A stretch of 64,000 bases of DNA. It comes from an uncultured Muribaculaceae bacterium. Lineage in GTDB: Bacteria; Bacillota_I; Bacilli_A; RF39; UBA660. The stretch is taken from positions 56,494 to 120,493 of the forward strand of contig CAZJTX010000001.1 of the NCBI GenBank assembly GCA_964549115.1, written 5' to 3'. The position numbers were made by a program, and so were the translations under genes. Below are positions 12,433-42,512 of this stretch, one piece after another. The notes under the pieces are model-generated. The model had not been told where the DNA came from, did not search any database, and saw nothing but the letters and a program-made list of their open reading frames with translations. Numbering within the stretch: position 1 is the stretch's first letter; the number at the start of each line of letters is the position of its first letter.

Positions 12433-12509
12433 TGGCGTCCTCAGTGAGATTCGAACTCACGACCTACTCCTTAGGAGGGAGTTGCGCTATCCTGCTACGC
12501 TATGAGGAC
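12433..12509 (-). tRNA. tRNA-Arg (anticodon CCU)
   Basis: 77 nt cloverleaf. Anticodon stem ACTCC/GGAGT with loop CTCCTAA. Encoded CCA. Confidence 0.75.
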
Positions 12510-15807: not shown

Positions 15808-15884
15808 TGGTCGAGAAGACAGGATTTGAACCTGCAACCCCTTGGTCCCAAACCAAGTGCACTACCAAGTTGTGCTACTTCTCG
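15808..15884 (-). tRNA. tRNA-Pro (anticodon UGG)
   Basis: 77 nt. Anticodon loop TTTGGGA. Encoded CCA. Confidence 0.8.
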
Positions 15885-15889
15885 TTTTA

Positions 15890-15966
15890 TGGTGCACCCA
15901 AAGGGAGTCGAACCCCTAGCCTTTAGATCCGTAGTCTAACGCTCTATCCAATTGAGCTATGGGTGC
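15890..15966 (-). tRNA. tRNA-Arg (anticodon ACG)
   Basis: 77 nt. Anticodon loop CTACGGA. Encoded CCA. Confidence 0.8.
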
Positions 15967-17697: not shown

Positions 17698-19170
17698 TTA
17701 TTCTTTTGGTTTCATTAAAGGAAAGATTACACATTCTCTTACGGGTCTGTCTACCAAGAATGAAAAAAACCTTTCTGATACCCCAAATCCAAATGCTGGG
17801 GGCATACCATATTCTAAAGCTTCGGTAAATTCTTTATCGTGTTCATGAGCTTCCAAATCTCCCGCCTCAGCCATTTCTCGTTGTTCTTTAAACCTTTTAT
17901 CTAAATCAATTGGATCGTTTAATTCAGTGTATCCATTTCCCATTTCTGAACCCGCTAATATAATTTGAAATTGAGCTACTTTTCTTGGGTCTTCTTTTAA
18001 TCTTTTTGGTAATGGATTTAACTCAACAGGTTGTCCTACTAAAAATCCAGGGCCTGCTAAATTTTTCCTTACTGTTTTCCAAAGTAAATCTACTAATCTC
18101 CAATAAGGAACATTTGGATCAAATTCAACATTCGATTCATTCAATTTTTTGATAATTTCTTCTTCACTTGAATTATATATTTCTATTCCTGTATTTTCTT
18201 TTATAATTGTTTCAAAATCATATATAGCCCACTCACTATTCATGTCTATATCAAATTCTTTAATTTTAATTTTTGAAGTACCCATTACTTTTTCAGTTAC
18301 TAACTGATACATTTTTTTCACAAAATCCATACCCATTTTATAATCCGCATAAGCCCAATAAAATTCCATTTGAGTATAATCTTGTAAATGTTCAGGACTC
18401 ATTCCTTCATTTCTAAATTGTCTACCTATTTCAAAAGTTTTATCATAACCTGCAACTAACAATTTCTTTTGCCACAATTCACCCATAGATATTCTTAGAA
18501 ACACATCTATATCTAGTGCATTATGATGAGTTTTAAAAGGTTCTGCAGCAGCTCCTCCTGTTGTATTTTCTAATACTGGGGTTTCCACTTCTAAAAAATC
18601 GTTCTCTAATAAATAATTTCTAATAGTTGCCCAAAATATTTGTTTTTTTCTAAATAAATCTTTAATCTCGGGATCAGTTATAATATCTAAATATCTTTTT
18701 CTTAATTTTATTTCCGAATCTGCTAATCCATGATATTTCTCTGGTAATGGCCTTAATGCTTTTGTTAAATGAATATACTTAGTAGCTTTAATAGATAGCT
18801 CACCAGTATTGGTTTTCATTAATATTCCTTCAATACCTACAATGTCACCTAAATCTGCTATATCAAATAAATAATAATTATCTTCACCTAACATATCTTC
18901 TCTAATGTATATTTGAATTTGCCCAACATTATCTTGAATATGCATAAAACCGGCTTTTCCTTTACCACGTTTAGTCATGATCCTTCCAGCTACTTTTACA
19001 CTTAAATTTAAGTCAACCAATTCTTCCTTGGTTAACTCACCATATTCTTTTAATAAATCTTTACTATAATGTGTTAAATCAAAACTATGACCAAAGGGAT
19101 CAATTTGTTTTTCTTCTAATTTAACTAATTTATCTCTTCTAACTTGTTCTTGTTCTGTTAACTCTTTCAC
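17698..19170 (-). CDS. lysS: lysine--tRNA ligase (class II)
   Basis: 490 aa. N-terminal OB anticodon-binding domain and class II motifs (…FRNEGMSPEH…, GGAAAEPF, GMGIDR-like). Confidence 0.95.
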   Translation of the reverse strand: MKELTEQEQVRRDKLVKLEEKQIDPFGHSFDLTHYSKDLLKEYGELTKEELVDLNLSVKVAGRIMTKRGKGKAGFMHIQDNVGQIQIYIREDMLGEDNYYLFDIADLGDIVGIEGILMKTNTGELSIKATKYIHLTKALRPLPEKYHGLADSEIKLRKRYLDIITDPEIKDLFRKKQIFWATIRNYLLENDFLEVETPVLENTTGGAAAEPFKTHHNALDIDVFLRISMGELWQKKLLVAGYDKTFEIGRQFRNEGMSPEHLQDYTQMEFYWAYADYKMGMDFVKKMYQLVTEKVMGTSKIKIKEFDIDMNSEWAIYDFETIIKENTGIEIYNSSEEEIIKKLNESNVEFDPNVPYWRLVDLLWKTVRKNLAGPGFLVGQPVELNPLPKRLKEDPRKVAQFQIILAGSEMGNGYTELNDPIDLDKRFKEQREMAEAGDLEAHEHDKEFTEALEYGMPPAFGFGVSERFFSFLVDRPVRECVIFPLMKPKE

Positions 19171-19233: not shown

Positions 19234-19764
19234 TTATACTTTATAAAATTTAGTGTTTCGTTTAGATACTAAGTACGCTCCAATACCTAAAACTGAGATG
19301 ACGCTAATAATTGCCAATGGCATCGATACACCAGTTTGTGTTGGTTTACCAGTACTAATTGTTACTTCTGGATTTTGAGCATATGCTTTAAATGAAAACT
19401 TAACACTACAGTCTTCGATATTACTTGCGTATGAAAACACAACTTTACCTAAAAGAACTTTATCTGTATTTTCAAATAATTCTTTAGGCGTAAATATTAT
19501 TTTGTCACCATCATGTTCTACAGTAAAGAATTCACTGTTTTCCGTTCTAGCAACACTTACTCCTTCGGCCATCTCCAATGTAGCTACAATATCAGAATCC
19601 GCAGGTATCAATTGATCTGTTTCAATCCATATACTTACTTCTGTTTCACAAATATCTTCTCCTGCTAAACAAGAGTCTTTTGGAGTAACAGTAATCGATG
19701 TAGCAGCAAATACTGCAGGAACAAACATGACCATTAAAAGTAATCCTAATAAATATTTCTTCAT
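19234..19764 (-). CDS. secreted surface protein with sortase-type C-terminal sorting signal (KPTQTG + hydrophobic segment + KRNTKFYKV)
   Basis: 176 aa. Classical signal peptide (AVFA|ATS). The C-terminus carries the PTQTG motif, a TM stretch and a basic tail. Adjacent to a SrtB-like gene. Confidence 0.5.
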   Translation of the reverse strand: MKKYLLGLLLMVMFVPAVFAATSITVTPKDSCLAGEDICETEVSIWIETDQLIPADSDIVATLEMAEGVSVARTENSEFFTVEHDGDKIIFTPKELFENTDKVLLGKVVFSYASNIEDCSVKFSFKAYAQNPEVTISTGKPTQTGVSMPLAIISVISVLGIGAYLVSKRNTKFYKV

Positions 19765-19903: not shown

Positions 19904-21460
19904 ATGAAAAGGATTTTAATTCAAATTGAAAACAATAATATATATTTTAGATCCAAAAGAAAATTAACTAAAAATCAAGAAAATATAATGAATACTAACA
20001 TTATTTCTGGTAATGAGTTAACTTTTTCTGATGAGTATATTATCGAAAACAAAAAAATAGTTATTACCTTTATAAAAGAATTAGTTAAGGACAATAATAT
20101 AGATACCGCGATTATTTATAACAACTCTTTAGAAAGAGACTTAATAACTATTTTAAAACATATCCCTAACATTAAAAACTTAATATTAAAAGATAATGTT
20201 CCTCTTTCATTTAATATGTGTTCTGAAATTATAAAATCAAACATTAAAATGGTTAGTTGTTTTACTCTTCAAGATTTTTTGCTTGAATATTTGGATAGAA
20301 ATAACATAATAGTAGAAATCAGATGTGAACATCTTTTTGTAAGTGAATTCATGGAATTAAATATGTTAAATAAATACTCAAGTATTTATTATAAGAAAAT
20401 TCTTAATTTTAACTTTCCCCTAACTAAATCTGATATAGAAGACTTTGGGGCTTTCTTACACATTAATAAGTATCTTAAAGTTATTCACATCAACAACCCC
20501 ACTAAAGACGATTTGATTGTTTTATTAGATATTATTTTAAAACACAAAAAAACAAGTATAAAAATAGTTTTACATGATAATGTAACAGACATAGAATTAT
20601 TAGAACTTATTAAAAAACAAAATAATTTATTAAAAAAGAAAAGGATTAAAATAACAGTATCTTATAGTGACAACTATATAAAAAAGAACTTATTAAAACA
20701 AACTAATGTAACGATATTAAATATAAGTATATTGTTAATCATTACTTTAATATCTGTGAGTTTTATATATATATTTACAGATAATTATTTATCACATAAA
20801 AAAGTCGAAGGAATACAAGAAGATATTAAAGAAGTTATTAAAACAGTAGATGCAGAAACAATAATTCAAGAAATTGAAGAAAAAGAAAATTCTGTTGTAA
20901 TTAATGATTATATAGCTAGTTTAATAACTATAAATAGCGATACCGTTGGTTGGTTAAAAGTTCCTAATACAAGAATAGATTATTCGGTTGTTAAAGCTAA
21001 AAATAATGAGTTTTATCTAAGAAGAGATTTTAAAAAGAAAAAAGGAAGCATCGGATGGATCTTTATGGACGCTAGAAACAAAAGAGATATGAGTGATGAT
21101 AATACAATTATATACGGGCATAATTATTATGAAAGCACAATTATGTTTGGAACTTTAAAATATGCTTTAAATGAAAAATGGATATCAAACAAAAAGAATC
21201 TTATTATTTCATTTGATTCTTTATACGGTAATCTACAATATGAAATATTTTCAGTTTATATTGTTCCACCTGTTAACGATTATTTAAGAATTAATTATGA
21301 CAATATTTTAGATAGATTAGAATTTTTCAATATGTTAAAAGATAGAAGTATTCATAAATTTGATACAACTATAACTGGGGAAGATAAGATATTAACCTTA
21401 TCTACTTGTGAAGAAAAAGGAACTAAGAGACTTGTTGTTCATGCCAAATTAATAAAATAG
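19904..21460 (+). CDS. class B sortase fused to an N-terminal ~265 aa cytoplasmic LRR-like domain
   Basis: C-terminal domain has IIYGHN (His box), the TLSTC catalytic Cys motif and a conserved Arg (TKRLVVHAK). A TM helix spans about residues 268-290. The N-terminal domain has repeats of the LxxLxLxxN type. Confidence 0.6.
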   Translation: MKRILIQIENNNIYFRSKRKLTKNQENIMNTNIISGNELTFSDEYIIENKKIVITFIKELVKDNNIDTAIIYNNSLERDLITILKHIPNIKNLILKDNVPLSFNMCSEIIKSNIKMVSCFTLQDFLLEYLDRNNIIVEIRCEHLFVSEFMELNMLNKYSSIYYKKILNFNFPLTKSDIEDFGAFLHINKYLKVIHINNPTKDDLIVLLDIILKHKKTSIKIVLHDNVTDIELLELIKKQNNLLKKKRIKITVSYSDNYIKKNLLKQTNVTILNISILLIITLISVSFIYIFTDNYLSHKKVEGIQEDIKEVIKTVDAETIIQEIEEKENSVVINDYIASLITINSDTVGWLKVPNTRIDYSVVKAKNNEFYLRRDFKKKKGSIGWIFMDARNKRDMSDDNTIIYGHNYYESTIMFGTLKYALNEKWISNKKNLIISFDSLYGNLQYEIFSVYIVPPVNDYLRINYDNILDRLEFFNMLKDRSIHKFDTTITGEDKILTLSTCEEKGTKRLVVHAKLIK

Positions 21461-23288: not shown

Positions 23289-23900
23289 ATGAAAGGTAAA
23301 GGTAAGATTATTCTATTACTATTATCATTAACAATTACTATCGGCTTTATGAATAGTACCTATTCAAGATATGTTGCTGGTACTACTGGTAATGTTGAAG
23401 CTGACTTTGCTAAGTGGCAATTATTAGTAAACAATAATGATATTACTGATAATAATACTAACAGTATTAGTTTTACTCCTGTCATAGAACAAAGTGAACA
23501 TGTAAGAGATAATGTTATCGCCCCTTCTTCAAAAGGATACTTCGATATTGAAATAGACCCTACTAATGTAGATGTATCATTTAAATATAAATTAAGTTTA
23601 CAAATTGAAAATGAAGAAGTGCCAGATCTACTAATGAGTAAATACGCGGTGTTACCACTTGATTACGAAGAAGAAGACCCACTAACATTTATAAATATAA
23701 TGGATAACGAAATAGAGAACTCATTATATATGAACAACACAATAGAAAATTTCAAGTACGAAAAATTCACTATTAGAATATACTTTGAATGGTTTGACAA
23801 TGAAGAAACAGACCATACAGAAATAGGTTATTTAGCAGCTACTGAAGGTTATGAATTAGATATTAGTGCAGATATAACATTTGAACAAATATTCAATTAA
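23289..23900 (+). CDS. TasA/camelysin-like (peptidase M73 family-like) secreted protein with SipW-cognate signal
   Basis: The start at MKGKGKII is preceded by AAAGGAG. The TM helix ends NSTYSRYVAG. A beta-rich region (GYFDIEIDPTNVDVSFKYKLSL) parallels the TasA FxFxNxG segment. Confidence 0.5.
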   Translation: MKGKGKIILLLLSLTITIGFMNSTYSRYVAGTTGNVEADFAKWQLLVNNNDITDNNTNSISFTPVIEQSEHVRDNVIAPSSKGYFDIEIDPTNVDVSFKYKLSLQIENEEVPDLLMSKYAVLPLDYEEEDPLTFINIMDNEIENSLYMNNTIENFKYEKFTIRIYFEWFDNEETDHTEIGYLAATEGYELDISADITFEQIFN

Positions 23901-23928: not shown

Positions 23929-25152
23929 TTATAAGTTTATTTTTTCTACTGTAATAACTGGTACTATATTACATGATTCTAAATTATTCTTTTTATATAT
24001 AGCAGAGGTGTTCTCATCTTCTTTTTTTATGGCAAATGTTGAGGTAGTATCATATACTGTATTAGTCCAATAACAATTATTAGAAACTAAATACTCCGGT
24101 TTGTTATTAAAAGTAAATATAGAATTGTTTAATTTAGCTTTATTTATAATAGTATTTAATCTATCTCCATAATATATGTGACCTAAGATTTCGGGGGCTA
24201 TACCCGTAGTTATTATTTGAGTATTTACAACGTCTTTAGAAACAATAGTTAATAAATCACCCACTTCTAAGCCTTTATAAGGAACAGTCCAACTTGAAGC
24301 TAATAACTGCATATTAGAAGCATAATCTGTTTGATTTGATGTAACATACTGAGTTGAAGGGTCTAACATTAAATTAACCTCTAAATCCCCTTTTTTATTA
24401 TCTCCATCTATAACTCTAGTTTTATAACAATCATTACCCACACTTGAGCAAGCTTGATTTAATACTGGGTTAAATAACACCTTTTTCCCCATCGGATAAT
24501 CAAGATCTGATGATGTTGCATCTTTTATATGTTGTTCCGCTATTACGCTAATAACTATCTTTATAGATGGTTGAATTAGGTAATTAGGATCTTGTAGTTT
24601 TTTATTGGCTTCGCTTTTTTGAAAAGCATATGCTCCATTACCCCATAAACTGTCAGCTTCATCATCATTTGAATCTAATGGCCATGAAATTGATACTGTA
24701 AATGTACCTTCATCTCCGTGTGCTAATAAGTGGTTTTTACTAAAACTCATGTTAATATGAAAAGGATAATTATGAGATATAGAGTCCTCTATATAAAGAG
24801 TATTCGGATTAATTTCATCATATTCATAATAATCTTCTTCGTTTCCTAGAATTCTAGCTGATGTTACAATATATTTTAAACTAGCATCAGAATCCCCCAT
24901 GTTTTTTATTTCCATCTTTTCACTTACTAAATCCATACCTGGGTGAATGTCCGATAAGCTAATTTCTATTTGATTAGAGATTGCCTCCCCGTCTTTAGTT
25001 AATTCTATATACCATGCCTTAACATCTATCTCTGTAGTCATTGAAGATAATCCGCTGTAAGCAAACCACGCCAAAGTAACAGCCATAAAAGATGTGACTG
25101 CTAGTGCAACTGTTACTAAATTAGCTCTTATTATTTTTAGTTTCTTATTCAT
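23929..25152 (-). CDS. TasA/camelysin-like domain protein with long C-terminal extension and SipW-cognate signal
   Basis: 407 aa. Signal/anchor ending VTLAWFAYSG. MEIKNMGDSDASLKYIV aligns with TasA FQFENNGSLAIKEV. Immediately downstream of sipW, as in tapA-sipW-tasA. Confidence 0.55.
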   Translation of the reverse strand: MNKKLKIIRANLVTVALAVTSFMAVTLAWFAYSGLSSMTTEIDVKAWYIELTKDGEAISNQIEISLSDIHPGMDLVSEKMEIKNMGDSDASLKYIVTSARILGNEEDYYEYDEINPNTLYIEDSISHNYPFHINMSFSKNHLLAHGDEGTFTVSISWPLDSNDDEADSLWGNGAYAFQKSEANKKLQDPNYLIQPSIKIVISVIAEQHIKDATSSDLDYPMGKKVLFNPVLNQACSSVGNDCYKTRVIDGDNKKGDLEVNLMLDPSTQYVTSNQTDYASNMQLLASSWTVPYKGLEVGDLLTIVSKDVVNTQIITTGIAPEILGHIYYGDRLNTIINKAKLNNSIFTFNNKPEYLVSNNCYWTNTVYDTTSTFAIKKEDENTSAIYKKNNLESCNIVPVITVEKINL

Positions 25153-25169: not shown

Positions 25170-25721
25170 TTATACTGCGTTTCTCCTTTTTTCCTCTTTT
25201 GCTAACAATGACGTTAGTATTTGAGCTCCAACTATATAAAATGTCGGAATTATACAAAATAATAAAAATCCTATTTTATTACTTATTACTTTATATATAA
25301 ACGACAACACTACTGAACGATAAATTATCTTACCGTATAATTGATCTTCTGATATAATTGGGTCTTCAATTATATTGGCTAAACCTTTAGCTGAAAAATA
25401 ATATTTTCCATCTGAGGATTGCATTACGTTTGTAACTTCGTGAGTTACTACTTTTCCTTTAAAGCTACCCTCTTTACCTTGGTAACTAATCGGATCCCCA
25501 ATTTTTATTGATGAGGGCGGTACCTCTTTTGAGATTAACACATCTCCTACGTCATACTTAGGCATCATACTACCAGATATGACGGAAAACATTCGATATT
25601 TAAATATTGAAACCTGATTATTACTTATTCTTTGCAATAAAACTACTACTATAAACGCTAGTAGTAAAATAGTAACCACAACATTTAATATCTTTTTTGT
25701 TATTTTAAATGCTTTTTTCAT
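25170..25721 (-). CDS. sipW: signal peptidase I, archaeal/ER type (S26B), SipW-like
   Basis: 183 aa. N-terminal TM helix, the SGSMMP serine box, a VTHEV histidine box and a C-terminal TM helix. Good alignment to B. subtilis SipW. Confidence 0.8.
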   Translation of the reverse strand: MKKAFKITKKILNVVVTILLLAFIVVVLLQRISNNQVSIFKYRMFSVISGSMMPKYDVGDVLISKEVPPSSIKIGDPISYQGKEGSFKGKVVTHEVTNVMQSSDGKYYFSAKGLANIIEDPIISEDQLYGKIIYRSVVLSFIYKVISNKIGFLLFCIIPTFYIVGAQILTSLLAKEEKRRNAV

Positions 25722-26860
25722 TAAACGACTCCTTTTTTATTTTCTTTTAAGAACCTTTTCATTTCATCTTGGAATTGTTTTTTAATTTCTGTTTCTCCAG
25801 CAGTTCTCTTTATTTTCTCATTTTTAATTTCATCTGCAATCATTTTTATAATTTCGTCTTCACTTATATCATAACCACTATTTAGAAGAATCTCAATAAC
25901 TCTTCGTATTTGTTCCGTAATCATAACGATTCCATAATGATATAATTTTTCGTTTTGATCTCGTTTTCTACTTGAAATTGAATCTAAAACATAATAACTC
26001 ATTAAAAACGCATCGTCTAATATTCCACGCACCATTTCATTACCTGTTGTCTCTAACGATTGTTTACCTTGGGCATTTTCTTTAATCATGTCTTGATTTA
26101 ATAAAAATTGCCATAACTTACTTGCAATTTGGAAGTTGGGGTTTTTTAATATCATATTAGTTTTTCTAATTGGAGGAATAACAAATGGTACTCTTGCTTT
26201 TTCTAATGATGTAACAAATTCACTTCTTCTCCAGTTAGTTAAATAATCTTGAACAAATTTTATTCTAGATCTTATATCTTCAATTTCTTTTGCAAACTCC
26301 TCAGGGTTTTTATCTTTTGGTAATTCTCCAGAAGTAATTCTAAATTCTATATCTATTTTTTCAACATCTGTTTTAGCAGTAGATGAATATTCAAGATGTT
26401 TATGGTTTTTCATCTCAAAGTTATCTAACATTCTCTCTTTATCCAAGACAAATCTTAACATATGATCTATTAAAGTATATATAAATCTGTTTTCATATGT
26501 ATTATAAGTTTCTTCTCTTCTTTCAATTAATATCTTAGATGGTTGAACCTCCATAGTTTCTAAATCTATTTTATCGATAAAGTGAGTATTTTTAGCCAAG
26601 TTTTTAACACTTGCCACCCCTATTTTTTTGGCTTTTTCTATTGTTACTATGTCTTCTTCATTTATAAGCGCCATTCTAGGATTCTTTATAATGTTATCGA
26701 TATAAGGACAAGCAAACTCTAGTTCATCCAACCAATTTAAAGACATTGTATCACTGTCTACTTCCGACTTGTAATACATTGAAGAATCTACACTATCCAT
26801 GAATAGTGTAGCTTTTTCTTTTGCTAATTCTGTATTTTCAACATTAATCTTTTTAGCCAA
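25721..26860 (-). CDS. hypothetical cytoplasmic protein, partner of the AAA ATPase
   Basis: 379 aa. No TM helix and no recognisable catalytic motif. TAATG overlap with sipW. Follows the AAA gene by 12 nt. Confidence 0.35.
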   Translation of the reverse strand: MAKKINVENTELAKEKATLFMDSVDSSMYYKSEVDSDTMSLNWLDELEFACPYIDNIIKNPRMALINEEDIVTIEKAKKIGVASVKNLAKNTHFIDKIDLETMEVQPSKILIERREETYNTYENRFIYTLIDHMLRFVLDKERMLDNFEMKNHKHLEYSSTAKTDVEKIDIEFRITSGELPKDKNPEEFAKEIEDIRSRIKFVQDYLTNWRRSEFVTSLEKARVPFVIPPIRKTNMILKNPNFQIASKLWQFLLNQDMIKENAQGKQSLETTGNEMVRGILDDAFLMSYYVLDSISSRKRDQNEKLYHYGIVMITEQIRRVIEILLNSGYDISEDEIIKMIADEIKNEKIKRTAGETEIKKQFQDEMKRFLKENKKGVV

Positions 26861-26872
26861 GACTAATCACTC

Positions 26873-28414
26873 CTAAATTGATTTTTTCAATCTTTCCAAA
26901 TAATCTATACACTCTATCATTGCTCCATTTCCGAATTCCTTATTTAAGTATGCAATAAATGGATCAACTTCATCTCTTATTAATGTAATATTTAATTGGT
27001 CAAATTTTCTTAAAATTTTCTTTGCTATAAAGTAATCTATAGCTTCTACTTCTTCTCCCCCACAAGCAACATACACTGGAACAAATGTATTTAATTGTTT
27101 CATAATTCTGTTACCAAAAGCTATTCTAAAATGTTTAATAACATAATCATCCATTGCTCTAACTTTATCTATATTTGATTCTGAAACTTTTATTTGTTCT
27201 TCTGCTTCTTTAAATAATCCTTCTAAATAACTAGAATTAATATCCATTGCTGCCTGTTCTCTACTCTTAAATGGATCAATTCTACTATTGATATCTATCG
27301 GCATAGCTCTATCATAAACTTTATCCGTAACCATGAAGGTCGAGTCGTCGTTGTTAATTGTTCCGATATACCATAGATTTTCCGGTAGTATTAATTTACC
27401 ATTTTCTATTCTTTTAGGGTCATCTGGCCAAGCACTACTTACTACTTCAATTACCCACTCACTTCTTGATGGCATTTCATATATAGATAACATCTCCGCA
27501 AAGTAATACTCAACTCTCGCAATGTTCATCTCGTCTAATATAATTGTGTGAACATCGTCGTTAAATCCAGCTTCGTATAATTCCGCTAAAACATCTGATT
27601 CGTTAAACTTTTTCGTAAATTCGTTAAAGTATCCTAATAATTCTGTTTTATCTCTCCAAGACGGTTCAACTGATGCTATACATGCATCAACGTTAACAAA
27701 CTTACCCCAAGCATATGCTAGAGAGGTTTTACCAGTACCAGATATACCTTGTAAGATAATTAACTTACCACAAGCTAAACCCGCCATAAATGGTCTTAAA
27801 ATACTATAATCATAATACAATCTTAATTGACTAGCAGCGAATGCTCTAAAGTTGTCGGTTAATTCTTTTAAATTAAAATTATTACCATAATTTTTAACTT
27901 TATATCCTTTGTATTCTTCGTCTAATTTTGTAAGTTTAGTAAATCTAACATTAGCTAAATCTATTTCGCCTTCTTCTAATTCTTCTCCATCTTCAGTCAA
28001 CTGAACTTCTTCGTCATCAGGAGATAATCCTAGTTGCGAAACTTTCATTGCCATGATCTCATCTTTTTCTTTCATAAGTTTTTTAACTTGATGATTTAAA
28101 TCTCCGATTTCATTTAAAAGTTCTTCTTGATTATATTTTCCTCTTCCAAATTGAATGTATCTTTTAATACCCCAAAAGATTAACCAAAAAGTTAATCCTA
28201 CCATAGCAACTAAAACTAAAACAGTTAAACCCACTAATATCCATTCAACAGTTGTAAAACTTGTATTGTATGAGTTAAATACTTTTTGATAGTTCGTAAA
28301 CTTAAACATTTTAGCAAAGCCCGAACCTATTCCTTTAAATATAGTTATAACTCCATCAAAGAATATTGAGATAAACTCATAAAAGAATCTTACAAATGTG
28401 TGCATATTAATCAC
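26873..28414 (-). CDS. membrane-anchored AAA+ ATPase of the McrB/AAA_5 type
   Basis: 513 aa. One or two N-terminal TM helices followed by a coiled coil. Walker A GISGTGKTS, LDEMNIAR (DEiNRa-like) and NLWYIGTINNDDST…DRA (McrB-like). Confidence 0.55.
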   Translation of the reverse strand: MINMHTFVRFFYEFISIFFDGVITIFKGIGSGFAKMFKFTNYQKVFNSYNTSFTTVEWILVGLTVLVLVAMVGLTFWLIFWGIKRYIQFGRGKYNQEELLNEIGDLNHQVKKLMKEKDEIMAMKVSQLGLSPDDEEVQLTEDGEELEEGEIDLANVRFTKLTKLDEEYKGYKVKNYGNNFNLKELTDNFRAFAASQLRLYYDYSILRPFMAGLACGKLIILQGISGTGKTSLAYAWGKFVNVDACIASVEPSWRDKTELLGYFNEFTKKFNESDVLAELYEAGFNDDVHTIILDEMNIARVEYYFAEMLSIYEMPSRSEWVIEVVSSAWPDDPKRIENGKLILPENLWYIGTINNDDSTFMVTDKVYDRAMPIDINSRIDPFKSREQAAMDINSSYLEGLFKEAEEQIKVSESNIDKVRAMDDYVIKHFRIAFGNRIMKQLNTFVPVYVACGGEEVEAIDYFIAKKILRKFDQLNITLIRDEVDPFIAYLNKEFGNGAMIECIDYLERLKKSI

Positions 28415-30434
28415 TTTCTCCTTCTTTTAACTTCTTATATATATTTTCATAAATAATATTACCTTTATAATCATTAATTATACTTACTGGTGTATTATCT
28501 TTTACTTTTCTTGTCATAAACAAGTAATCTGCCAAATATATTCTTGTTTTATCTTTTACAGCTAATTTAGCATTAGTATCTAATATTAAAGCAAACTTGT
28601 AACCTAATTGTTTTAATTCTTTAATAATTTTATGATTAGCATTTAAGTCCTCATATGTAATACATGAAATAACATTATCCTTTGCATATTCATTATCAAA
28701 TAAACCAAACAATCTTTGTGTTTTCTTTACCTTTGGATATAAACTACCTGGAACATCTATATAATATTTTTTATCATGTTTATTATTAACTATATCATTT
28801 ACTAGTTGTTTTAATAATAATGTGATTAATATTTCTAGTTTGTCCTCCGCTACTACTCCTTCATTATATGTTTTATCAATTATGTAATCACTAAACACTT
28901 TGCTAAACGTAATATTGTGAGCTAATTTAACAACTTTCATATACTTTCTTGTTCTTACTTTAAAGAAGTCTAACTCAAATGTTGGAGCTCCCTCTTCCTC
29001 AAAGTAATATACATATAAATCTTTATATTTGTTTTGAACTTTAAGTATTTTCTCCGCCATATGTGGATGTTTTTCTTCTTCCCATTCTTTAAAGTTTTTA
29101 GCTAATGTCTTTTTAATAAATTCTTGCTTAACTTTATCTTCTTTTACAGTTTTATTAGCATGCTCTAAATGAGACACAACATTATAGTACTCAGAATATT
29201 TTTTAATAATGGTTTTTTCTTTATCGTCTTTTGTTTCTTTTAATAAGTCTTTCTCAAGTCTTTTTACTACTTTTAACATTTTATCTGTTATATTTTTCTC
29301 TACCGGTTTAATTGGTACACCTTTATAGAAATTATAATAATAACCTTTAACATAATGTTCACTATAATCTTTTTTAAACTTAGAATTAATTACATACTTT
29401 AGATCATCTTGGTTTAACAAGTCTACTATTTCAATAATTTCTTCTTGTTTTAAAGTTAGTAATAACTCCAGTACATTATCAGCCTTAGTTTCTTTCTTAG
29501 GCATTACTAATGGTTCTCTTGGTTTTTCTTTTTCTACTTCTTCTTTTGGCTCTTCTTTTACCACTGGTACTGGCTTTTGTTCTTTCATTTCTGTATTTGC
29601 AATTTCTAATAAGGTCTCATCTATCTCAGATTCATCAACCGATATCATCCTAAACAATACCGTTTCCGATTCTTCATCACTTATTGTATCCTCTTCAGTC
29701 GATTTCTCCTCGATTACTTCTTCTTTTGGTTCTTCTTTTACCTCTTCCTCTTCCATATCATCAATTAATACAGTCTTAAAAGTAACGGTTTTTTCTAAGT
29801 CTTCATTTATTTTATCTATATCTTCATCTTTAACTGTTATAACTTCAGTTAATTCTTTTTTAAGTTTTGGTTTTTTCTTTTCTTTTATCGGTCTTTCTTC
29901 TTTTGGGACAGGTTTATAAGTTTTTAATATATAATTAAAAATAACCACGGTTAACAATGCCGAAAACAATACCATTTTATTTAATATAACTTTTCTAAAT
30001 ATTCCAACATTAGGTATAATCTTTACTACTTTACCTACTATTTGTTTTGAAGATACAGGTTCATCTTTAACTTTATTAGCATCTCCCTTAGTTATATATT
30101 TATCTTGATATATACCTACTACTCTATGTGTAATAAACTCTTGATTAGATTCAAAAGTTATAACATCATTTAATTTAACATCTTTTGTTAACTTAACAAT
30201 AACCCAGTCTTGAGGCATGATGTGTTTAGCCATACTCCCAGTTTCTACTTCAAACAAAGAATATCCAAAAAATGTCGCATGTTTGGAATCAGTAAACTTT
30301 GTTTTTAAGTTTATAAATATAACAAGTACTAGTGTTAAACTAAATAAAAAAATTAGTATATTTAAAAATATATTCGCTATTTTTTTAAATACTTTATTAT
30401 TGTCAATTACCCCGTTTTTTATCTTCTCTATCAT
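28407..30434 (-). CDS. SipW-like S26B signal peptidase domain fused to a ~500 aa cytoplasmic KE-rich, possible degenerate EAL-like extension
   Basis: N-terminus has a TM helix, ETGSMAK, NDVITFESNQEFITHRVV, TKGDANKVKDEPVS and a second TM helix, aligning closely with SipW. The C-terminal region contains LKQLGYKFALILDTNAK and YLADYLF, which resemble EAL DDFG/KID blocks with the catalytic residues replaced. Confidence 0.55.
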   Translation of the reverse strand: MIEKIKNGVIDNNKVFKKIANIFLNILIFLFSLTLVLVIFINLKTKFTDSKHATFFGYSLFEVETGSMAKHIMPQDWVIVKLTKDVKLNDVITFESNQEFITHRVVGIYQDKYITKGDANKVKDEPVSSKQIVGKVVKIIPNVGIFRKVILNKMVLFSALLTVVIFNYILKTYKPVPKEERPIKEKKKPKLKKELTEVITVKDEDIDKINEDLEKTVTFKTVLIDDMEEEEVKEEPKEEVIEEKSTEEDTISDEESETVLFRMISVDESEIDETLLEIANTEMKEQKPVPVVKEEPKEEVEKEKPREPLVMPKKETKADNVLELLLTLKQEEIIEIVDLLNQDDLKYVINSKFKKDYSEHYVKGYYYNFYKGVPIKPVEKNITDKMLKVVKRLEKDLLKETKDDKEKTIIKKYSEYYNVVSHLEHANKTVKEDKVKQEFIKKTLAKNFKEWEEEKHPHMAEKILKVQNKYKDLYVYYFEEEGAPTFELDFFKVRTRKYMKVVKLAHNITFSKVFSDYIIDKTYNEGVVAEDKLEILITLLLKQLVNDIVNNKHDKKYYIDVPGSLYPKVKKTQRLFGLFDNEYAKDNVISCITYEDLNANHKIIKELKQLGYKFALILDTNAKLAVKDKTRIYLADYLFMTRKVKDNTPVSIINDYKGNIIYENIYKKLKEGESD

Positions 30435-30490: not shown

Positions 30491-30520
30491 AAAAAGAACA
30501 TCTTTTTTTTGATGTTCTTA
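30491..30520 (-). terminator. rho-independent terminator
   Basis: AAGAACATC-T8-GATGTTCTT. On the minus strand it is followed by a T-rich tract. Separates the 30518 gene from the 28407 gene. Confidence 0.55.
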
Positions 30521-31045
30521 AGCGTAATTTTCTTTTCCGTATCTTATTTCTACAACTAAAGCATATATTTGATATATAAATATTAGGAAACATGGTATGA
30601 GAATGACAAACAAGAATCCCATTGTAGACCCTACCACTGAGAGGAATGTACCCATAAACTCATAAGACTTCGTTGGTTGTCCTATTATAAATTCATCTTT
30701 AAATATACGTCCATTTTCAAACACTATTCGTTTATTGTCGCTATCTACTACCCCTAGTTTACCAAATTCAATATGAACGATCTTTCCCTCTACAACATAA
30801 ACAAACATTTCTTTGCCTATTTTATAATCTTGTAATTTTTTACTCTCCGTTAAAACTAAAGACCCTTTTTTAAACTTTTCTGAAGAATTTTGAGTATTAA
30901 TTAATACTAATGACGTATCCCCAAATTGAGTTACACCATATTTATTTCTATAAATTAATACTAAAGCCATCGCCGTAGCAAATATAAAAAATGCTAAGAC
31001 TAATAAACCTACAAAAAACGTTTTTACTTTCTTTAATATCTTCAT
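30518..31045 (-). CDS. SipW-like paralog with degenerate serine box (probable pseudo-peptidase)
   Basis: 175 aa. Same TM/ectodomain/TM architecture and a conserved His region (KIVHIEFG), but the SGSMxP box is replaced by INTQNSSEK. Confidence 0.4.
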   Translation of the reverse strand: MKILKKVKTFFVGLLVLAFFIFATAMALVLIYRNKYGVTQFGDTSLVLINTQNSSEKFKKGSLVLTESKKLQDYKIGKEMFVYVVEGKIVHIEFGKLGVVDSDNKRIVFENGRIFKDEFIIGQPTKSYEFMGTFLSVVGSTMGFLFVILIPCFLIFIYQIYALVVEIRYGKENYA

Positions 31046-31103: not shown

Positions 31104-32000
31104 TCATGGACACATTTTTAACTCAATAATTGTAAAGTCTTCTACTTTAATAATATTATTTATGTCTAAATTAATAAATTTGTACAATTTAGACGATTTT
31201 TTATTTATTTTAAAATGTACTTCGTTAATAAAACCAGTTGGATCTTCTTCGTAATCTAAAAAGTTATCTAAATCTTCGTCTATCTTTATAGTGTTTTTAT
31301 CCCAATCCAAGCTGTAGCATTTATCTTCATTAAATGTATTTATTATATACACTTCATCAAAGTCAGTTTTATGATTTATATCAATTATTAAGTCTTCTAG
31401 TTCTTGATCAACCCTCATTAAATAAAACGTTCCTTTTAATACTTTTTTATATGGACTAGTAGACTCCACTTTTATTAAAACTTCAACCTGATCTAATTGA
31501 TAGTTTTCATTTGTTGATTTAACATTAAAATAAATTTCATCTTCCACTTTTTCTTTATGCCATTCATATCCTTCTTGATTACATCTATCAACATTATGAG
31601 ACGACACATCTACCTCATCAATATTATTCACACAGTAATCGTTTTTATCTAAAGATAAAGTTAATTCATCCGCATCTGTGCCATTAATACTACAAGTCGC
31701 ATGACTAGACGCTTCCCCTAATACTTCACAAGTTACATTATAAGAAATATCTAAGTCTGTTATATCGCTACCTTCAAAGTTTTTAATATTAAAGTAAATA
31801 TCCTCACCTTGCCAGTAATTAAAATGATTGTCGATTCCCTTTTTTGTTAAATAATCACTTTCAAAATGAAATTCATTTGATACTACATAATGAGTCCACA
31901 TTTTGTTATATACATATCTACTAAAAGTAAATGATATATACATTGATGATATTGCTAGTAGTATCAATAGAACGAATAATGGTTTTGATTTTAATTTCAT
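31104..32000 (-). CDS. secreted protein with SipW-cognate-like signal (FTFSRYVYN)
   Basis: 298 aa. N-terminal anchor followed by an acidic, Cys-containing beta-rich domain. Confidence 0.4.
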   Translation of the reverse strand: MKLKSKPLFVLLILLAISSMYISFTFSRYVYNKMWTHYVVSNEFHFESDYLTKKGIDNHFNYWQGEDIYFNIKNFEGSDITDLDISYNVTCEVLGEASSHATCSINGTDADELTLSLDKNDYCVNNIDEVDVSSHNVDRCNQEGYEWHKEKVEDEIYFNVKSTNENYQLDQVEVLIKVESTSPYKKVLKGTFYLMRVDQELEDLIIDINHKTDFDEVYIINTFNEDKCYSLDWDKNTIKIDEDLDNFLDYEEDPTGFINEVHFKINKKSSKLYKFINLDINNIIKVEDFTIIELKMCP

Positions 32001-32002
32001 AT

Positions 32003-32557
32003 TTAATCTTCCTTCTTTTGCCAGCTATTTATATTTAATTGAATAAAATCTGCTAAATCTTGATATTGTAAATCATTATACTCTTCTGGAAATATTATTT
32101 TAAGTTTATATACGTCTTCCTTAGCTAATTTATATTGTAGTAACATATTATCTGTTTCGCATACTAACTCATTTTTGTCATTACGATCAAAATCATCTTC
32201 ATTACAATCCATTACTAAAGTCTCAGTTTCATCTTCAACATTATATAACAGGATTTCTAGTGGAATGAAATGATATGTTTTTATAGTAATTTTATACTCA
32301 ACATCAATATCACTCAATTTGCTATCTTCATTATTTTTAACATTAAATATATATTCTTTTTCCATACCTGGTGAAATATTATTAACCGGCAATTCAAAAT
32401 CCTCCACTGTGCTTGCTTCAAATACAAACTTAGCAAAGCTAGGATTATCTGACTCCATTACAATTCCACTTTTAAAATATGAGTATGTTGCTCCGGCTCC
32501 TATACTTAAAAGGTTTAAAAATACTATCATAAATATTATTTTATATTTTCTTTTCAT
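32003..32557 (-). CDS. TasA/camelysin-like small secreted protein
   Basis: 184 aa. Signal ending GAGATYSYFKSG (the GTyAyFsD consensus). YIFNVKNNEDSKLSDIDVEY matches the TasA FQFENNGSL block. Confidence 0.6.
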   Translation of the reverse strand: MKRKYKIIFMIVFLNLLSIGAGATYSYFKSGIVMESDNPSFAKFVFEASTVEDFELPVNNISPGMEKEYIFNVKNNEDSKLSDIDVEYKITIKTYHFIPLEILLYNVEDETETLVMDCNEDDFDRNDKNELVCETDNMLLQYKLAKEDVYKLKIIFPEEYNDLQYQDLADFIQLNINSWQKKED

Positions 32558-32560: not shown

Positions 32561-35500
32561 TCACCTTACTATGAATACCTTTTCTATAGTATTTATTTTT
32601 GTATTATCGTTATAAAACTCAAACCTTAATTTATATGAATTATAATCTAAGTTAGATGTATTAAACTCTAGATCTAATTGGTTAAATAAATGAAATGGCG
32701 ATTCATATAATACTGGGTTTTTAAATGCATAATATACATTATTAGCAATTAATTCTAAATTGTTTGATACATAATTGTTTATATTTATTAAGGTGTACTC
32801 TTGGTTATACGCCGATAACTCTTTTTTCTCATATAACGACACTCTTATATTAGGATTAACAACTGATGTATTTAATGATATTTTATAATTTATAGTATCT
32901 TGTAATAATTCTTTTGTTATCAAGTTTTTATCACCACTTACACTATAAATATAAGTATTAACTATTTCATTATTTAATACTCTTACTGGTATTAATATAT
33001 CTTCTTTTATATATTTGTCTCCGAACAAACCATCATTTGATGCAAATAATGTTAATTTTAAATTATATAAACCTTCACTTAAGTTATTATTATCAGCCAA
33101 TGTTATTATTTCTAAGTCATTAATAGAATTAACAACATTATTATTTAATCTAATTCTAAACATTCCATTTTTATCCGGATAATAAGTTTTCCCATCTACT
33201 TTTATTTGCATATTTTTTAAATATTTAACATCTACAATGTTGTTGTTTTTTACAAACGATACTTCCATTCCTAACTTTTTATTAAATAATCTTGTATCAT
33301 ACACTTCCATTAAATTTAACAATTTATAATCTATCTTAGTATCTAATTCTATATTAGTAATAGAGTTACTATTATAAATTATTTCTTCTTCAAAATCAGT
33401 AGTAATAGTTATTTCTTCTCTATAATCATTAGAGGTTATTATATTGTATAATTTAACGTCTTTATTTAGGGTATATCTCATTATATCGTCATTTGTATCG
33501 TACACTCTTAAACGAGCTCTAAAGTCTTCTATATCGTCGTTTATAGTGGCGTTATTAAAATGTAACGTAATAGTAAAATCTTCATTTACTTCATTATTTT
33601 TATAATAGTTATCTTCTTCATAATAATCTTTAGTTGATCCAACTTCTTTAAAGTCTTCAAATGAGTATACTGCTTCTTTTTCACATTCTAAATCTAAAAT
33701 ATCACAACTATTATTATATCCATATAAATCATCACTAGTTGATACTTTATAGTAATATTTTTTATTATTAATATTGTCCTCTAATTTTATATAAGTTCCT
33801 ACTGGTAATAAATAATTAGTGACTAGCACATGTTTTTCTACCTCGTGATATAAATAATCACTAAAGTATGTAAATTCTAATTTTATTTCTGATTTATTGC
33901 TAATATTAGAAATATTATAAACATTATTTAAATTATATCCTTCATATAAAATATAGTCAGTATTTAAGTATAAGTTTTTACCATCTATATCGGTTATTTT
34001 TACATATACTATGTGTTTACCTTCTTCTTCTATATTTATTCCATCGACATACTCATCCCAGCTGCTTACACTCATTGACGCTAATGCTTTAATTGTCTTT
34101 TTAGATTCAGTAACGTGATAATAAGCGCTTACAATGTCGCTTCCAAGCTCTAAGTCAATTGTTTCATTTTTATGTATATATATAGTTTTAGGACTATTAT
34201 TATAATCTCCCCATACATAATTATTTAATTTTAAGTTTGTTCCTTCATTAGATTGATCTAATACCAAAAAGTCAGTGTTAGAGTAATATTCATTGTCGTT
34301 ATAGTCTATAGTTTTAACATATATTACATATGTACCTTCTTCTTCTATTTTAACAATATCATTATACTCAGTCCATGTATCTATACTTTTTATATCCTCT
34401 AAAAACAACGCTTCTTCAGTATCAGAAATATAATAATATATTTTCTTAGAAGGGTTTAGAGCATCTAAATCCTCTATGTTAAAAGTAATATTAGATGAGA
34501 AGTTATAATAATCTAACTCCATACTATAATTAGTCCAAGTATAAATACTTGAGTTTATACTAACTAAAGAATCTTTTAAATCATCTATAAATAGTATTGG
34601 CAATATACCTTCATCGTATACCCATACATTTTCATCGTTTGTTTCTATGTCATTAAAATTAATAAATTCATCATATAATAAATCATCTTTAATATCTTCA
34701 TCAATTAATATGTCTTCTAACAAAGCATAGTTGAACTCACCGATTAATAATCCGTTATTAACATGATCTTCTTCTTTTGTAGTATAAGAATTTGACACTA
34801 CTACATCTGTGTCTATTATATTGTTAATTAAATGGTCTTCTGAATTACTAATTACATGATATAAATTAATTTCATCTGAGTTATAAACATTACCAATCAA
34901 ACTAGATTTTAGAGATGAATTCAATACTCCATCATTATAAGATTTATATATATTTGATTCTAATGATTCATCTATAGTGTTTATTAATCCTGCTGTATTG
35001 TGATTAGAATGTATAAAACCTTTGTTATAACTTCTTTTTATATCAAAAGAGCCTCTTACAAGAGATATTAATCCACTTGAGTTATAATCTCCGATTATTC
35101 TTCCCTTGTTTATAACGTTTTCTAACACTACATTATTAGCATAACCAACAATACCGCCTGTATGGGTATTTTTATATATTATTTCATATCTTAAATTAGA
35201 TAATTTTAACTCTCCTTCTAATAAAGAAGGCTCTATTTCTAAATTTAGAGATTCATATAAATTTTGGTTAAAGTTTAATTCAAAGTTTTTAGTTAACACA
35301 GATTCATTATTAATTTTCAAATCAACTGATTGACTAGTATTAATTAAATCCATAGTTCCATAAAGGGTTGTTTTTACTATGTCTCCATCTTTTAATAATA
35401 AGTCATTATCTATTAATATTTCATCTGTTATAAATAAATTATTTAAAGAAGTTGTATAGTCTTCCAAATCTATACTTTCAATTATTTCATCTGATTCATT

Positions 35501-36264: not shown

Positions 36265-36288
36265 TAAAAAAAGAGTGAATAATCACTC
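36265..36288 (-). terminator. rho-independent terminator after paralog A
   Basis: On the minus strand: GAGTGA-TTAT-TCACTC followed by T8. Confidence 0.6.
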
Positions 36289-37844: not shown

Positions 37845-37897
37845 ACTTTTTTCTCCTTCTTTCCTTTATTTTGAATAGTCTCTCTACTATTATATTA

Positions 37898-37925
37898 ATT
37901 TTATCATATCATTTGATTTTGTCAA
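37898..37925 (-). promoter_or_regulatory. sigma-A-type promoter of paralog A
   Basis: On the minus strand: TTGACA, a 16 nt spacer, then TAAAAT. The same architecture recurs upstream of paralog B. Confidence 0.35.
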
Positions 37926-37938
37926 TATTATTTGACGT

Positions 37939-39576: not shown

Positions 39577-39707
39577 GATTCTTCCTCTTCTATTTTAGAA
39601 TCTTCTAATGTTTTAATAAATTCAACAATGTCATTATATAGTTTAATTAAGTCAGTTAAACTTAATACTGACATGTCATAATCAACTTTTTTTACTTCCT
39701 TTTTCAT
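39573..39707 (-). CDS. small ORF (44 aa) translationally coupled to the coiled-coil gene
   Basis: MKKEVKKVDYDMSVLSLTDLIKLYNDIVEFIKTLEDSKIEEEES. RBS GGTGGA lies 5 nt upstream. Its TGA stop overlaps the ATG of the downstream gene (ATGA). It is below the ORF-track length cutoff. Confidence 0.4.
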   Translation of the reverse strand: MKKEVKKVDYDMSVLSLTDLIKLYNDIVEFIKTLEDSKIEEEES

Positions 39708-39801
39708 CTATCCACCTTTTATCCTTAAATTAATTAAGGGCAACCAACTAGATTACCCTTAATAATTTTATATTTCTAACATAATCAATAGTTAGTATTT
39801 A

Positions 39802-41319: not shown

Positions 41320-41374
41320 CTTTCTCCCTCTCTTTTGTGAACTTTTGTAAAGTCCTCTTTTCTACTCTAATTAA

Positions 41375-41402: not shown

Positions 41403-41430
41403 TAATAATTGACACAAATTAAAGTCTTTT

Positions 41431-42450: not shown

Positions 42451-42512
42451 TGGCTTTTCTTTAAATTTATTTTTAAGATCTTTTAATTTTACTTCTTTTT
42501 TTATGATAACTC

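Follow-up and report, generated by a model that had tools for sequence, protein, structure and literature searches.

The 64,000-nucleotide stretch of DNA analysed here (positions 56,494 to 120,493 of the forward strand of contig CAZJTX010000001.1, assembly GCA_964549115.1, from an uncultured Muribaculaceae bacterium; hereafter, the window) carries, within a cluster of genes for SipW-type signal peptidases and secreted proteins, a gene pair predicted to encode a membrane-anchored McrB-like GTPase of 510 residues (26873..28405) and a McrC-like partner of 379 residues (25721..26860); features named below lie on the minus strand unless the plus strand is given. The locus is a member of the CoCoPALM class, which was named in 2023-24 and has been little explored. 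In our overall reading, the pair is probably a CoCoPALM-type, McrBC-derived nucleoside triphosphatase (NTPase) complex dedicated to an operon for the assembly of SipW-dependent surface fibres (TasA-like pili). We have high confidence in the identity of the module and in its dedicated link to the fibre pathway; the specific mechanism, proposed by analogy, is put forward only tentatively. A core of conserved order, formed by a ~325-residue domain, the GTPase, the McrC-like protein and SipW, is found in many Bacilli and Clostridia beside genes for secreted proteins, and the McrBC derivative encoded in the window is predicted to have lost the DNA-targeting domain and the nuclease and to have gained a membrane anchor.

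The McrB-like GTPase and its McrC-like partner

The catalytic core of the GTPase carries the motifs of a McrB-type AAA+ protein. Its Walker A motif, GISGTGKTS (27722..27748), has three Gly residues and a Lys that are invariant in a diverse alignment of 30 relatives (alignment A3), and the Walker B motif together with the motif that follows it, LDEMNIAR (27515..27538; DExN..R), aligns to IIDEINRA of Escherichia coli McrB, with Asp291, Asn294, Arg297 and Glu299 invariant in the same 30 relatives. The McrB signature, or sensor-1, motif reads Asn-Asn-Asp-Asp (NNDD; 27344..27355), that is, an NxD motif followed by Asp or Glu; Asn351 and Asp353 are invariant and Asp354 varies among the diverse relatives. 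These three motifs, as well as ...DKVYDRAM, are invariant among close homologues, and all of the AAA+ motifs that had been quoted in an earlier note on this DNA (GISGTGKTS, LDEMNIAR and ...DRA) are present. When the 150 best cluster representatives were examined, the signature motif was found in 129, and 127 of these have the form N-x-D-[D/E], the other two ending in Gln. The account of McrB proteins by Bell and co-authors describes a major branch in which an NxD motif usually precedes a Glu or a further Asp (Bell et al., 2024; PMC11090510). The NNDD of the window can also be read as NxxD, as an ungapped alignment to NTAD of E. coli McrB is possible.

Database searches scored more than 8000 homologues for the GTPase and 922 for the partner, far more than chance would give, so that both ORFs are taken as real genes; the results agree with a McrB/McrC-like pair, as the earlier note had proposed. 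A profile made from 30 homologues of the GTPase matched only E. coli McrB in the PDB (6hz4, 6ut6 and 7vsr; E 4e-6 to 8e-6), in an alignment that covers Walker A, Walker B and NNDD/NTAD; the NCBIfam model for McrB matched the protein itself (E 9e-5), and the partner matched DUF2357 (E 3.8e-10; see below). Pfam returned nothing for the GTPase itself at E<=0.01 and, with the limit raised to E<=5, no more than noise, so that its family membership is drawn from NCBIfam, PADLOC, the PDB profile search and its relatives, 25 of the 30 diverse ones matching Pfam AAA_5. An AlphaFold2 (AF2) model of the protein (pLDDT, the per-residue confidence score of the model, 70) led in a Foldseek search to the group of AAA+ proteins that includes RavA, McrB, MCM and dynein; RavA was the top match (E 3.4e-5), and the scores of all four were similar because they share an AAA+ clade, from which McrB cannot be separated in this way. 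The RavA match, and the AAA_5 matches of the relatives, are what could be said for a MoxR/RavA-type AAA+ chaperone (AAA_5) that matures the partner and is not derived from McrBC. However, the sequence searches returned McrB and no MoxR or RavA, the partner is a DUF2357 protein and not a VWA protein, only the McrB lineage has the N-x-D-[D/E] signature and the Foldseek score of RavA is no better than those of McrB, MCM and dynein; we give this alternative almost no credence.

The open reading frame (ORF) listed for the GTPase (26873..28414) has 513 codons counted from an in-frame GTG at 28414, and 513 residues was the length given in the earlier note. The gene and its reading frame stand but the length does not: the true start is most likely the ATG at 28405, which gives 510 residues, and the upstream GTG is probably unused. 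The assignment is made because AAGGAG lies 13 nt upstream of the ATG, because all 29 aligned homologues (29/29) start at the corresponding methionine, reading MNTF or MHTF, and because gene callers run independently on identical metagenome contigs give a protein of 510 residues.

Upstream of the AAA+ core, a Kyte-Doolittle scan (19-residue window, threshold 1.6) identified one strong transmembrane (TM) helix, WILVGLTVLVLVAMVGLTFWLIFW (28172..28243), with a score of 2.52 and within a predicted continuous helix spanning residues 55-91. A basic stretch, KRYIQFGRGK, comes directly after it, which, by the positive-inside rule, places the AAA+ domain in the cytoplasm. Nearer the N-terminus, a conserved hydrophobic or amphipathic segment, FVRFFYEFISIFFDGVITIFKGIGSGFAK (28310..28396; predicted helix 4-25), includes a hydrophobic part, FVRFFYEFISIFFDG..., that scores below the threshold; its Arg, Phe, Phe, Tyr, Glu, Phe, Ser and Gly residues are invariant in an alignment of 30 GTPase homologues (alignment A1), and it could be a second, weak TM segment or a re-entrant helix carrying a conserved Glu and Asp. 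The strong TM helix is followed by a short juxtamembrane helix of coiled-coil type, KYNQEELLNEIGDLNHQVKKLMKEKDEIMAMKVSQ (28034..28138; predicted helix 96-127 in the 513-residue numbering of the model, about 32 residues), with a heptad register in which the a/d positions are L-I-L-V-L-K-I. It corresponds to what the published description of CoCoPALM systems treats as 'FtsB-like'. An acidic, low-complexity linker, LSPDDEEVQLTEDGEELEEGEIDL (27956..28027), with a net charge of -11 over 20 residues, then leads to the catalytic domain; both its length and its sequence vary, it is gapped in alignment A1 and its pLDDT is below 50 in the model. The earlier note's 'one or two' TM helices, coiled coil and acidic linker are thus borne out, the second helix as a segment below threshold. 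Pfam scans matched no DNA-binding family in the protein, the N-terminal 150 residues of which consist of the hydrophobic segment, the TM helix, the coiled coil and the linker. Taken together, these features make the 510-residue protein, as predicted from its sequence, a member of the NxD branch of McrB-type AAA+ NTPases, with intact motifs, a cytoplasmic catalytic domain and an anchor formed by a TM helix and a short coiled coil.

The arrangement of a TM helix followed by a leucine-zipper-like helix of about 30 residues resembles FtsB and DivIC, and raises the alternative of a divisome or envelope factor that shares only its transcription with the fibre genes. The region is called FtsB-homologous in the description of the class (Bell et al., 2024; PMC11090510), and Pfam DivIC does match the GTPase weakly (E 0.5), and one of the 30 diverse relatives at E 0.012. 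Yet the similarity to FtsB or DivIC was insignificant in every test run, including an hhalign comparison of the stalk with approximate sequences of FtsB and DivIC (Prob <1%); moreover, there are no division genes in the neighbourhood, and subfamilies with at least three TM helices keep the link to SipW (see below), so that the conserved feature is the SipW link and not the FtsB-like stalk. A role in division is highly improbable.

The partner matches Pfam DUF2357 (PF09823), the N-terminal domain of McrC, with E 3.8e-10 and 39.9 bits against a cut-off of 23.3; the match spans residues 54-155 (26396..26701) and includes a conserved block, ...PSKILIERREETYNTYENRFIYTLI. A second, near-invariant motif, IPPIRKTNMILKNPNFQIASKLW (26111..26179; invariant columns Pro230 to Trp250), lies outside the DUF2357 match, and is kept in a 724-residue partner of Clostridia type and, weakly, in the partner found in a multi-TM subfamily (both described below). 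The Kyte-Doolittle scan found no TM segment in the partner, and neither a conserved acidic/lysine triad nor a PD-(D/E)xK nuclease was seen in the alignment of its homologues or in the family scans. Its C-terminal half is predicted to be all-helical, the longest helix having 29 residues, in a model of low confidence (pLDDT 64); Foldseek returned nothing for this model at E<0.8, a result that a pLDDT of 64 makes too weak to carry an argument. The 120 homologues listed have about 340-393 residues, mostly 377, with DUF2357 as their only domain. Thus, the description of the partner in the earlier note, as a soluble protein without nuclease motifs, is upheld, and the 379-residue protein is predicted to be a McrC homologue in which DUF2357 has been kept and the nuclease replaced by a helical domain. 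No nuclease family was matched in any of the ten proteins of the cluster, and no gene for a HEPN, PLD or other effector is adjacent.

Conservation and linkage to SipW

At each of three evolutionary distances the GTPase ranks first in conservation within the cluster, with median identities of 66, 58 and 52%; at the same distances the values are 52, 41 and 30% for SipW and 43, 33 and 31% for the partner, and the secreted proteins range from 25 to 47%. Mean column identity is 77% across the 30 GTPase homologues of alignment A1, and the closest homologues (the 120 listed of more than 8000 scored) are 66-75% identical to the protein of the window, apart from one at 100%. These values point to strong purifying selection on the GTPase. 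As the GTPase is the best conserved protein and the flanking genes are of housekeeping or surface type, the pattern is that of a core component of a machine and not of a gene in an arms race.

To establish the distribution of the module, one genome per species was scanned for 185,579 species, and relatives were found in at least 588 of them. Synteny was then counted in the 80 best species-level genome loci, from Bacilli and Clostridia; the labels of the metagenome-assembled genomes concerned include Tenericutes, Mollicutes, Erysipelotrichaceae, Oscillospiraceae, Acutalibacteraceae and Lachnospiraceae. A McrC-like gene lies immediately downstream of the GTPase gene in 79 of the 80 loci, the exception being at a contig end, and SipW is nearby in 71, mostly at -53 to +12 nt from the stop codon of the McrC-like gene. 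Homologues of a secreted 407-residue protein encoded in the window are present in 59 of the loci, and homologues of a 203-residue protein encoded convergently in 56. Loci of Clostridia type likewise carry SipW beside the pair; in that of Ruminococcus sp. CAG:488 (L071), SipW is directly upstream of the GTPase gene, and the partner, of 724 residues, is homologous to that of the window by hhalign (Prob 99.9%). McrC-like partners of Clostridia type are about twice as long (703-755 residues), and in L071 a 2391-residue ORF comes next. Eight of the loci of Clostridia type (L069, L070, L071 and L075-L079) also encode a stand-alone EAL protein (PF00563, E 1.4e-46), at a distance of 2-4.5 kb upstream from the McrB-like gene, for example at L071:5469-6224.

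The link to SipW extends beyond the architecture seen in the window. Of the 145 close representatives in which a Walker A motif could be recognised, one or two TM helices were counted in 43, three or more in 40 and none N-terminal of Walker A in 62; the last group, mostly of 700-870 residues with a few short fragments, probably represents a CoCoNuT-like defence branch. In 68 of 80 metagenome loci (L084-L163; for example, L090:6959-15823), the GTPase gene of a distant subfamily from the human gut, with at least three N-terminal TM helices, is directly preceded by an ORF of the SipW family; since this subfamily keeps SipW upstream, the SipW link outlasts changes of the membrane anchor. The protein encoded downstream in the multi-TM subfamily is weakly McrC-like (hhalign Prob 52%, E 1.5e-4). 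Two further features of this subfamily were recorded: its SipW-family protein is unusually long, at about 320-380 residues, and in L090 and L139 the weakly McrC-like protein is followed by an ABC-transporter ATPase and then by an ORF of about 530 residues, with a weak match to an ABC-2 permease in L090 only. The check on co-occurrence with sipW that the earlier note had proposed thus gave 71 of 80 loci, and 68 of 80 in the distant subfamily; among the loci examined, neither a nuclease fold in the partner nor a pair independent of sipW or lacking a secretion context was seen.

These counts bear on whether the pair is an anti-phage or anti-plasmid defence module, of type IV restriction or CoCoNuT-like type, that merely sits in a fibre island, which was one of two readings offered in the earlier note, the other being a role in fibre assembly. 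The GTPase domain is of McrB type, and its closeness to defence-type relatives shows in the best PADLOC match of the NTPase core, to PDC-M26A (E 1.9e-37), a family listed as a defence candidate; the 62 of 145 close representatives without a TM helix, probably CoCoNuT-like, also lend this idea some weight. Defence genes, however, are usually patchy in distribution and turn over fast, whereas the GTPase gene evolves more slowly than any other of the cluster (66-75% identity for the 120 nearest homologues listed), and its order with SipW and the secreted proteins is fixed in the 80 loci and in the distant subfamily. In addition, the partner is without a nuclease, no HEPN, PLD or other effector gene is adjacent, the GTPase is membrane-anchored with no nucleic-acid-binding domain matched, and the flanking genes are of housekeeping type (lysS, tRNAs) or encode surface proteins, rather than belonging to defence systems or mobile elements. 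A hitch-hiking defence module is therefore very unlikely, given a best conserved GTPase and the absence of an adjacent effector, and it is the reading as a fibre-assembly module that fits the SipW synteny.

SipW paralogues, secreted proteins and the layout of the locus

Genes for SipW-type peptidases flank the McrB/McrC pair on both sides in the window, with matches to TIGR02228 that are above its cut-off. Downstream of the pair is a signal peptidase I of SipW (archaeal/ER) type, of 183 residues (25170..25721; E 4.4e-22), in which the catalytic Ser (GSM) and His (THE) are present. Upstream is a 675-residue fusion protein (28407..30434; E 1.9e-18), which begins with a peptidase domain of SipW type that has two TM helices (29925..30434) and continues with an acidic linker rich in Lys and Glu and a long cytoplasmic tail; GSM and THRV are present in its SipW domain, which is predicted to be an active peptidase. 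A third SipW-like protein, of 175 residues (30518..31045; syntenic in 41 of 80 loci), matches TIGR02228 weakly (E 0.0036); in the alignment, TQNS replaces SGSM and IEFG replaces THxV, and as the catalytic Ser and His are both missing, this paralogue is probably a pseudo-peptidase.

The C-terminal domain of the 675-residue protein, of about 330 residues (at about 28407..29459; referred to here as the ~325-residue domain), is fused to SipW in the closest relatives and is free-standing in about 30 more distant loci, where its gene precedes that of the McrB-like protein by about 10 nt (e.g., L017:8989-9987 and L020:8993-9988). Since it also occurs in this free-standing form upstream of the GTPase gene, the conserved core comprises the ~325-residue domain, the GTPase, the McrC-like protein and SipW. 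The clearest sign that the cytoplasmic complex may be physically joined to the peptidase is that, in the lineage of the window, this putative adaptor is fused to SipW. Searches for a Pfam, PDB or annotated homologue of the domain found none, and it was matched in just three of 17 clusters of Clostridia type. A similarity to Mcm5 (E 0.001) covers a helical stretch of 66 residues and was rejected as compositional.

Over 105 columns, and in the expected register of strands, the C-terminal half of the ~325-residue domain aligned by hhalign with the EAL proteins of the clusters (Prob 26%, E 7e-4), a likeness that is suggestive only. It bears on the alternative of a signalling switch, in which the GTPase/DUF2357 pair and the ~325-residue domain would sense a cytoplasmic cue (e.g., cyclic di-GMP, c-di-GMP, or nucleotide status) and license SipW or the expression of the fibre genes, with no mechanical work. 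Besides this alignment, a true EAL protein is encoded upstream in eight loci of Clostridia type, fibres formed by donor-strand exchange need no energy source (PMC11580942), and the shortening to NxD, which in the account of Bell and co-authors is predicted to alter how fast hydrolysis proceeds, would suit a timer (Bell et al., 2024; PMC11090510). However, the EAL similarity of the ~325-residue domain is insignificant by the usual criteria, with no Pfam or PDB match, and a switch and a motor alike would be compatible with the very high conservation seen throughout the AAA+ core and its ring-forming elements, the sequence data not separating the two. A pure switch is thus unlikely, if a serious alternative.

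All of the remaining proteins of the cluster have N-terminal anchors in the Kyte-Doolittle scan, and motifs in the secreted proteins (TYSRYVA, TLAWFAYSG and GATYSYF) recall the signals of SipW substrates. The last gene of the unit encodes a candidate fibre subunit of 407 residues (23929..25152; TM 12-30), the N-terminal anchor or signal of which ends in ...VTLAWFAYSG, and which has conserved AWF.Y, PGM, N.GD and C-terminal A.Q motifs. Convergent with it, on the plus strand, is the gene for a second candidate subunit (23289..23900), with a signal ending in ...NSTYSRYVA; it has 203 residues according to the gene callers and is nearly always on the opposite strand in syntenic loci. PDB profile searches with the 203- and 407-residue families were empty, and hhalign comparisons of both with TasA were insignificant. 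A 184-residue secreted protein (32003..32557) has weak TasA/camelysin-like features: it matches Pfam Peptidase_M73 at E 0.067, and its family (alignment A5) aligned by hhalign with an approximate sequence of Bacillus subtilis TasA (Prob 59.7%, E 8.8e-5), so that, by these weak matches, the family resembles the N-terminus of TasA. Peptidase_M73 was also matched by three of 68 pooled members of four secreted-protein families (A9; best E 3.7e-4), a count made over the four families together. A candidate minor fibre subunit of 298 residues (31104..32000; TM 8-26; signal ...FTFSRYV) and a candidate tip adhesin or fibre-associated protein of 1208 residues, with an N-terminal TM segment (32561..36187), are each syntenic in 29 of the 80 loci; for the latter, the first gene of the cluster, Pfam and NCBIfam scans gave no confident family match.

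On the minus strand, from 36187 to 23929, nine close-packed genes encode, in order, proteins of 1208, 184, 298, 175 and 675 residues, the GTPase, the 379-residue partner, the 183-residue SipW and the 407-residue protein. The TAA stop codon of the 675-residue gene lies one base ahead of the ATG of the GTPase gene at 28405. The GTPase gene ends in TAG, followed by a 12-nt spacer with AGGAG and then by the TTG start of the partner at 26860: the two genes are closely coupled and do not overlap. The earlier claim that they are 'translationally coupled' was right as to their closeness and slightly overstated in view of the gap. The overlap of the partner's stop codon with the start of sipW, as TAATG, was confirmed at 25721. 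A terminator-like hairpin lies between the genes for the 175- and 675-residue proteins (30494..30519) and a second at 36273..36288, just ahead of the 1208-residue gene, both from a consensus scan only; their positions suggest that the cluster is split into two transcription units, the second of which would be 675aa-McrB-McrC-SipW-407aa. A promoter scan was uninformative, with 96 sites against 101 expected in DNA of 28% GC.

The flanking genes are lysS, tRNA genes and genes for a transporter, a sortase and surface proteins. With lysS at 17698..19170 and eight tRNA genes near it, in three groups (10522..10931, 12436..12509 and 15811..15966, minus strand), the neighbourhood is that of an ordinary chromosomal housekeeping region and not of a mobile island. 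A class B sortase is encoded on the plus strand at 19904..21460 (TIGR03064, E 5e-47) and has an unusual N-terminal extension of about 270 residues; the adjoining gene encodes a 176-residue secreted protein (19234..19764), the C-terminus of which is made up of KPTQTG, a hydrophobic stretch and a basic tail and resembles a sorting signal of sortase B type. Directly upstream of the cluster (36327..43955) are several ORFs of about 480-545 residues, three of which have a C-terminal surface Ig-like domain (PF16403, E 1e-7 to 2e-17); as these three share the terminal domain, the ORFs form an array of surface-protein paralogues.

Possible mechanism and comparison with known systems

In the solved McrBC complexes (PDB 6hz4 and 6ut5), McrB forms a hexameric ring and hydrolysis is triggered when DUF2357 inserts in its pore. 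By analogy, the NTPase of the window would assemble as a hexameric ring beneath the membrane, and the DUF2357 domain of the partner would insert in the ring and stimulate GTP hydrolysis. The output of hydrolysis would go not to a nuclease acting on DNA but to the membrane signal peptidases and the anchored fibre precursors, the likely relay being the helical domain of the partner, the ~325-residue adaptor and the TM/coiled-coil stalk, including the conserved N-terminus within the membrane. The outcome may be the timing or the driving of the cleavage of SipW signal anchors and of the polymerisation of subunits; a gating or regulatory role is somewhat favoured, because TasA-like fibres self-assemble by donor-strand exchange. 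In its fullest form, the mechanism would be a new NTP-driven fibre engine, with a membrane GTPase hexamer and a nuclease-less McrC plug wired to SipW through a degenerate EAL-like adaptor, which possibly senses c-di-GMP, such that the engine times anchor cleavage and the donor-strand polymerisation of TasA-like subunits. Such an engine would differ from sortase pili, from type IV pili and from the spontaneous assembly of TasA; as a whole, we regard it as possible, if on the unlikely side.

Several observations weigh against our reading of the locus as a McrBC-derived complex dedicated to fibre assembly. As noted above, the NTPase core finds its best PADLOC match in a candidate defence family. 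The AF2 models are mediocre (pLDDT 70 for the GTPase and 64 for the partner), and the absence of a nuclease fold from the partner is, for that reason, argued mainly from its length, its predicted secondary structure and its missing catalytic residues. Neither Pfam nor hhalign confirmed the homology of the N-terminus to FtsB or DivIC. The TasA-like nature of the secreted proteins is suggested by weak matches, with no match in the PDB. TasA, BsaA and the archaeal bundling pili polymerise by donor-strand exchange with no known NTPase (PMC11580942), so that a motor is not obviously needed; the 'McrB' that occurs in the same paper belongs to an E. coli strain genotype. Finally, the published description of CoCoPALM systems is a single paragraph, in which the class is known from genes alone (Bell et al., 2024; PMC11090510).

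If the complex does control or power the assembly of SipW-dependent fibres, it would be a clear exaptation of a defence machine for the biogenesis of the cell surface. McrBC is a textbook defence enzyme, and its NTPase/activator core is present here without the DNA-binding and nuclease parts and in a fixed position in a surface-fibre operon; the module is spread over many metagenome contigs from the gut and, among the 185,579 species genomes scanned, over no fewer than 588. An energy-dependent step would then be added to a family of fibres thought to self-assemble, and adhesion and biofilm formation would become more accessible to study in Bacilli and Clostridia of the gut that have received little attention and are largely uncultured. 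The core of three to four genes, the candidate adaptor domain and the purifying selection on the GTPase are starting points for experiments.

The closest known systems are those of the CoCoPALM class itself. The earlier note held that a membrane-anchored McrB in a secretion and fibre operon was not a described arrangement; this has to be withdrawn, as Bell and co-authors, in their paragraph on the class, describe 'another large clade' in which the GTPase carries a fused FtsB-like TM and coiled-coil region and is tied to signal-peptidase genes, and to which they gave the name CoCoPALM, with coiled coils usually on both the McrB and the McrC homologues and with the analysis deferred to a later paper (Bell et al., 2024; PMC11090510). 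A literature search did not find that follow-up paper. The locus shares with the class an NxD-type McrB GTPase with an N-terminal TM helix and coiled coil, an adjacent DUF2357 McrC homologue, signal-peptidase genes and an occurrence in Bacillota; no defining feature fails here, while the FtsB homology of the stalk was not reproduced. Beyond what that paragraph states, we observed a third component, of about 325 residues and fused to SipW, a SipW paralogue without its catalytic residues, multi-TM subfamilies that keep the SipW link, EAL genes in clusters of Clostridia type and a GTPase that is the most conserved gene.

With canonical McrBC (E. coli and Thermococcus gammatolerans; 6hz4, 6ut6, 6ut5 and 7vsr), the pair has in common the AAA+ Walker A and B motifs, a sensor Asn followed by an Asp, an immediately downstream gene for a partner that has the DUF2357/McrC N-terminal domain and, probably and by analogy, the activation of hydrolysis by a plug in a ring. 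In contrast, the locus encodes no N-terminal DNA-binding domain but a TM helix, a coiled coil and an acidic linker in its place; its family-invariant motif is NxD and not NxxD, the partner is without a PD-(D/E)xK nuclease, and the genes evolve very slowly in fixed synteny with secretion and fibre genes. CoCoNuT systems are similar in their NxD-branch McrB, their coiled-coil fusions, their McrC homologues, often without an active nuclease, and the match of PDC-M26A to the GTPase core. However, as Bell and co-authors describe them, they are soluble, have long coiled coils and always have a HEPN or other nuclease alongside (Bell et al., 2024; PMC11090510), whereas the complex of the window is without a nuclease, membrane-anchored and short in its coil, and its neighbours are signal peptidases and secreted proteins.

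The fibre operons with which the locus can be compared are sipW-tasA-tapA of B. subtilis, sipW-bsaA-bsaB-bsaC of Clostridium perfringens and those for the archaeal bundling pili. The locus shares with these the Ser/His dyad of SipW, several small secreted proteins with N-termini like those of SipW substrates and, in the 184-residue family, a weak similarity to TasA/camelysin. Those operons, however, have no NTPase, and their fibres form by donor-strand exchange; here, by contrast, there are three SipW paralogues, one of them predicted to be dead and one fused, a 1208-residue protein and, at the centre of the cluster, the McrBC-derived pair.

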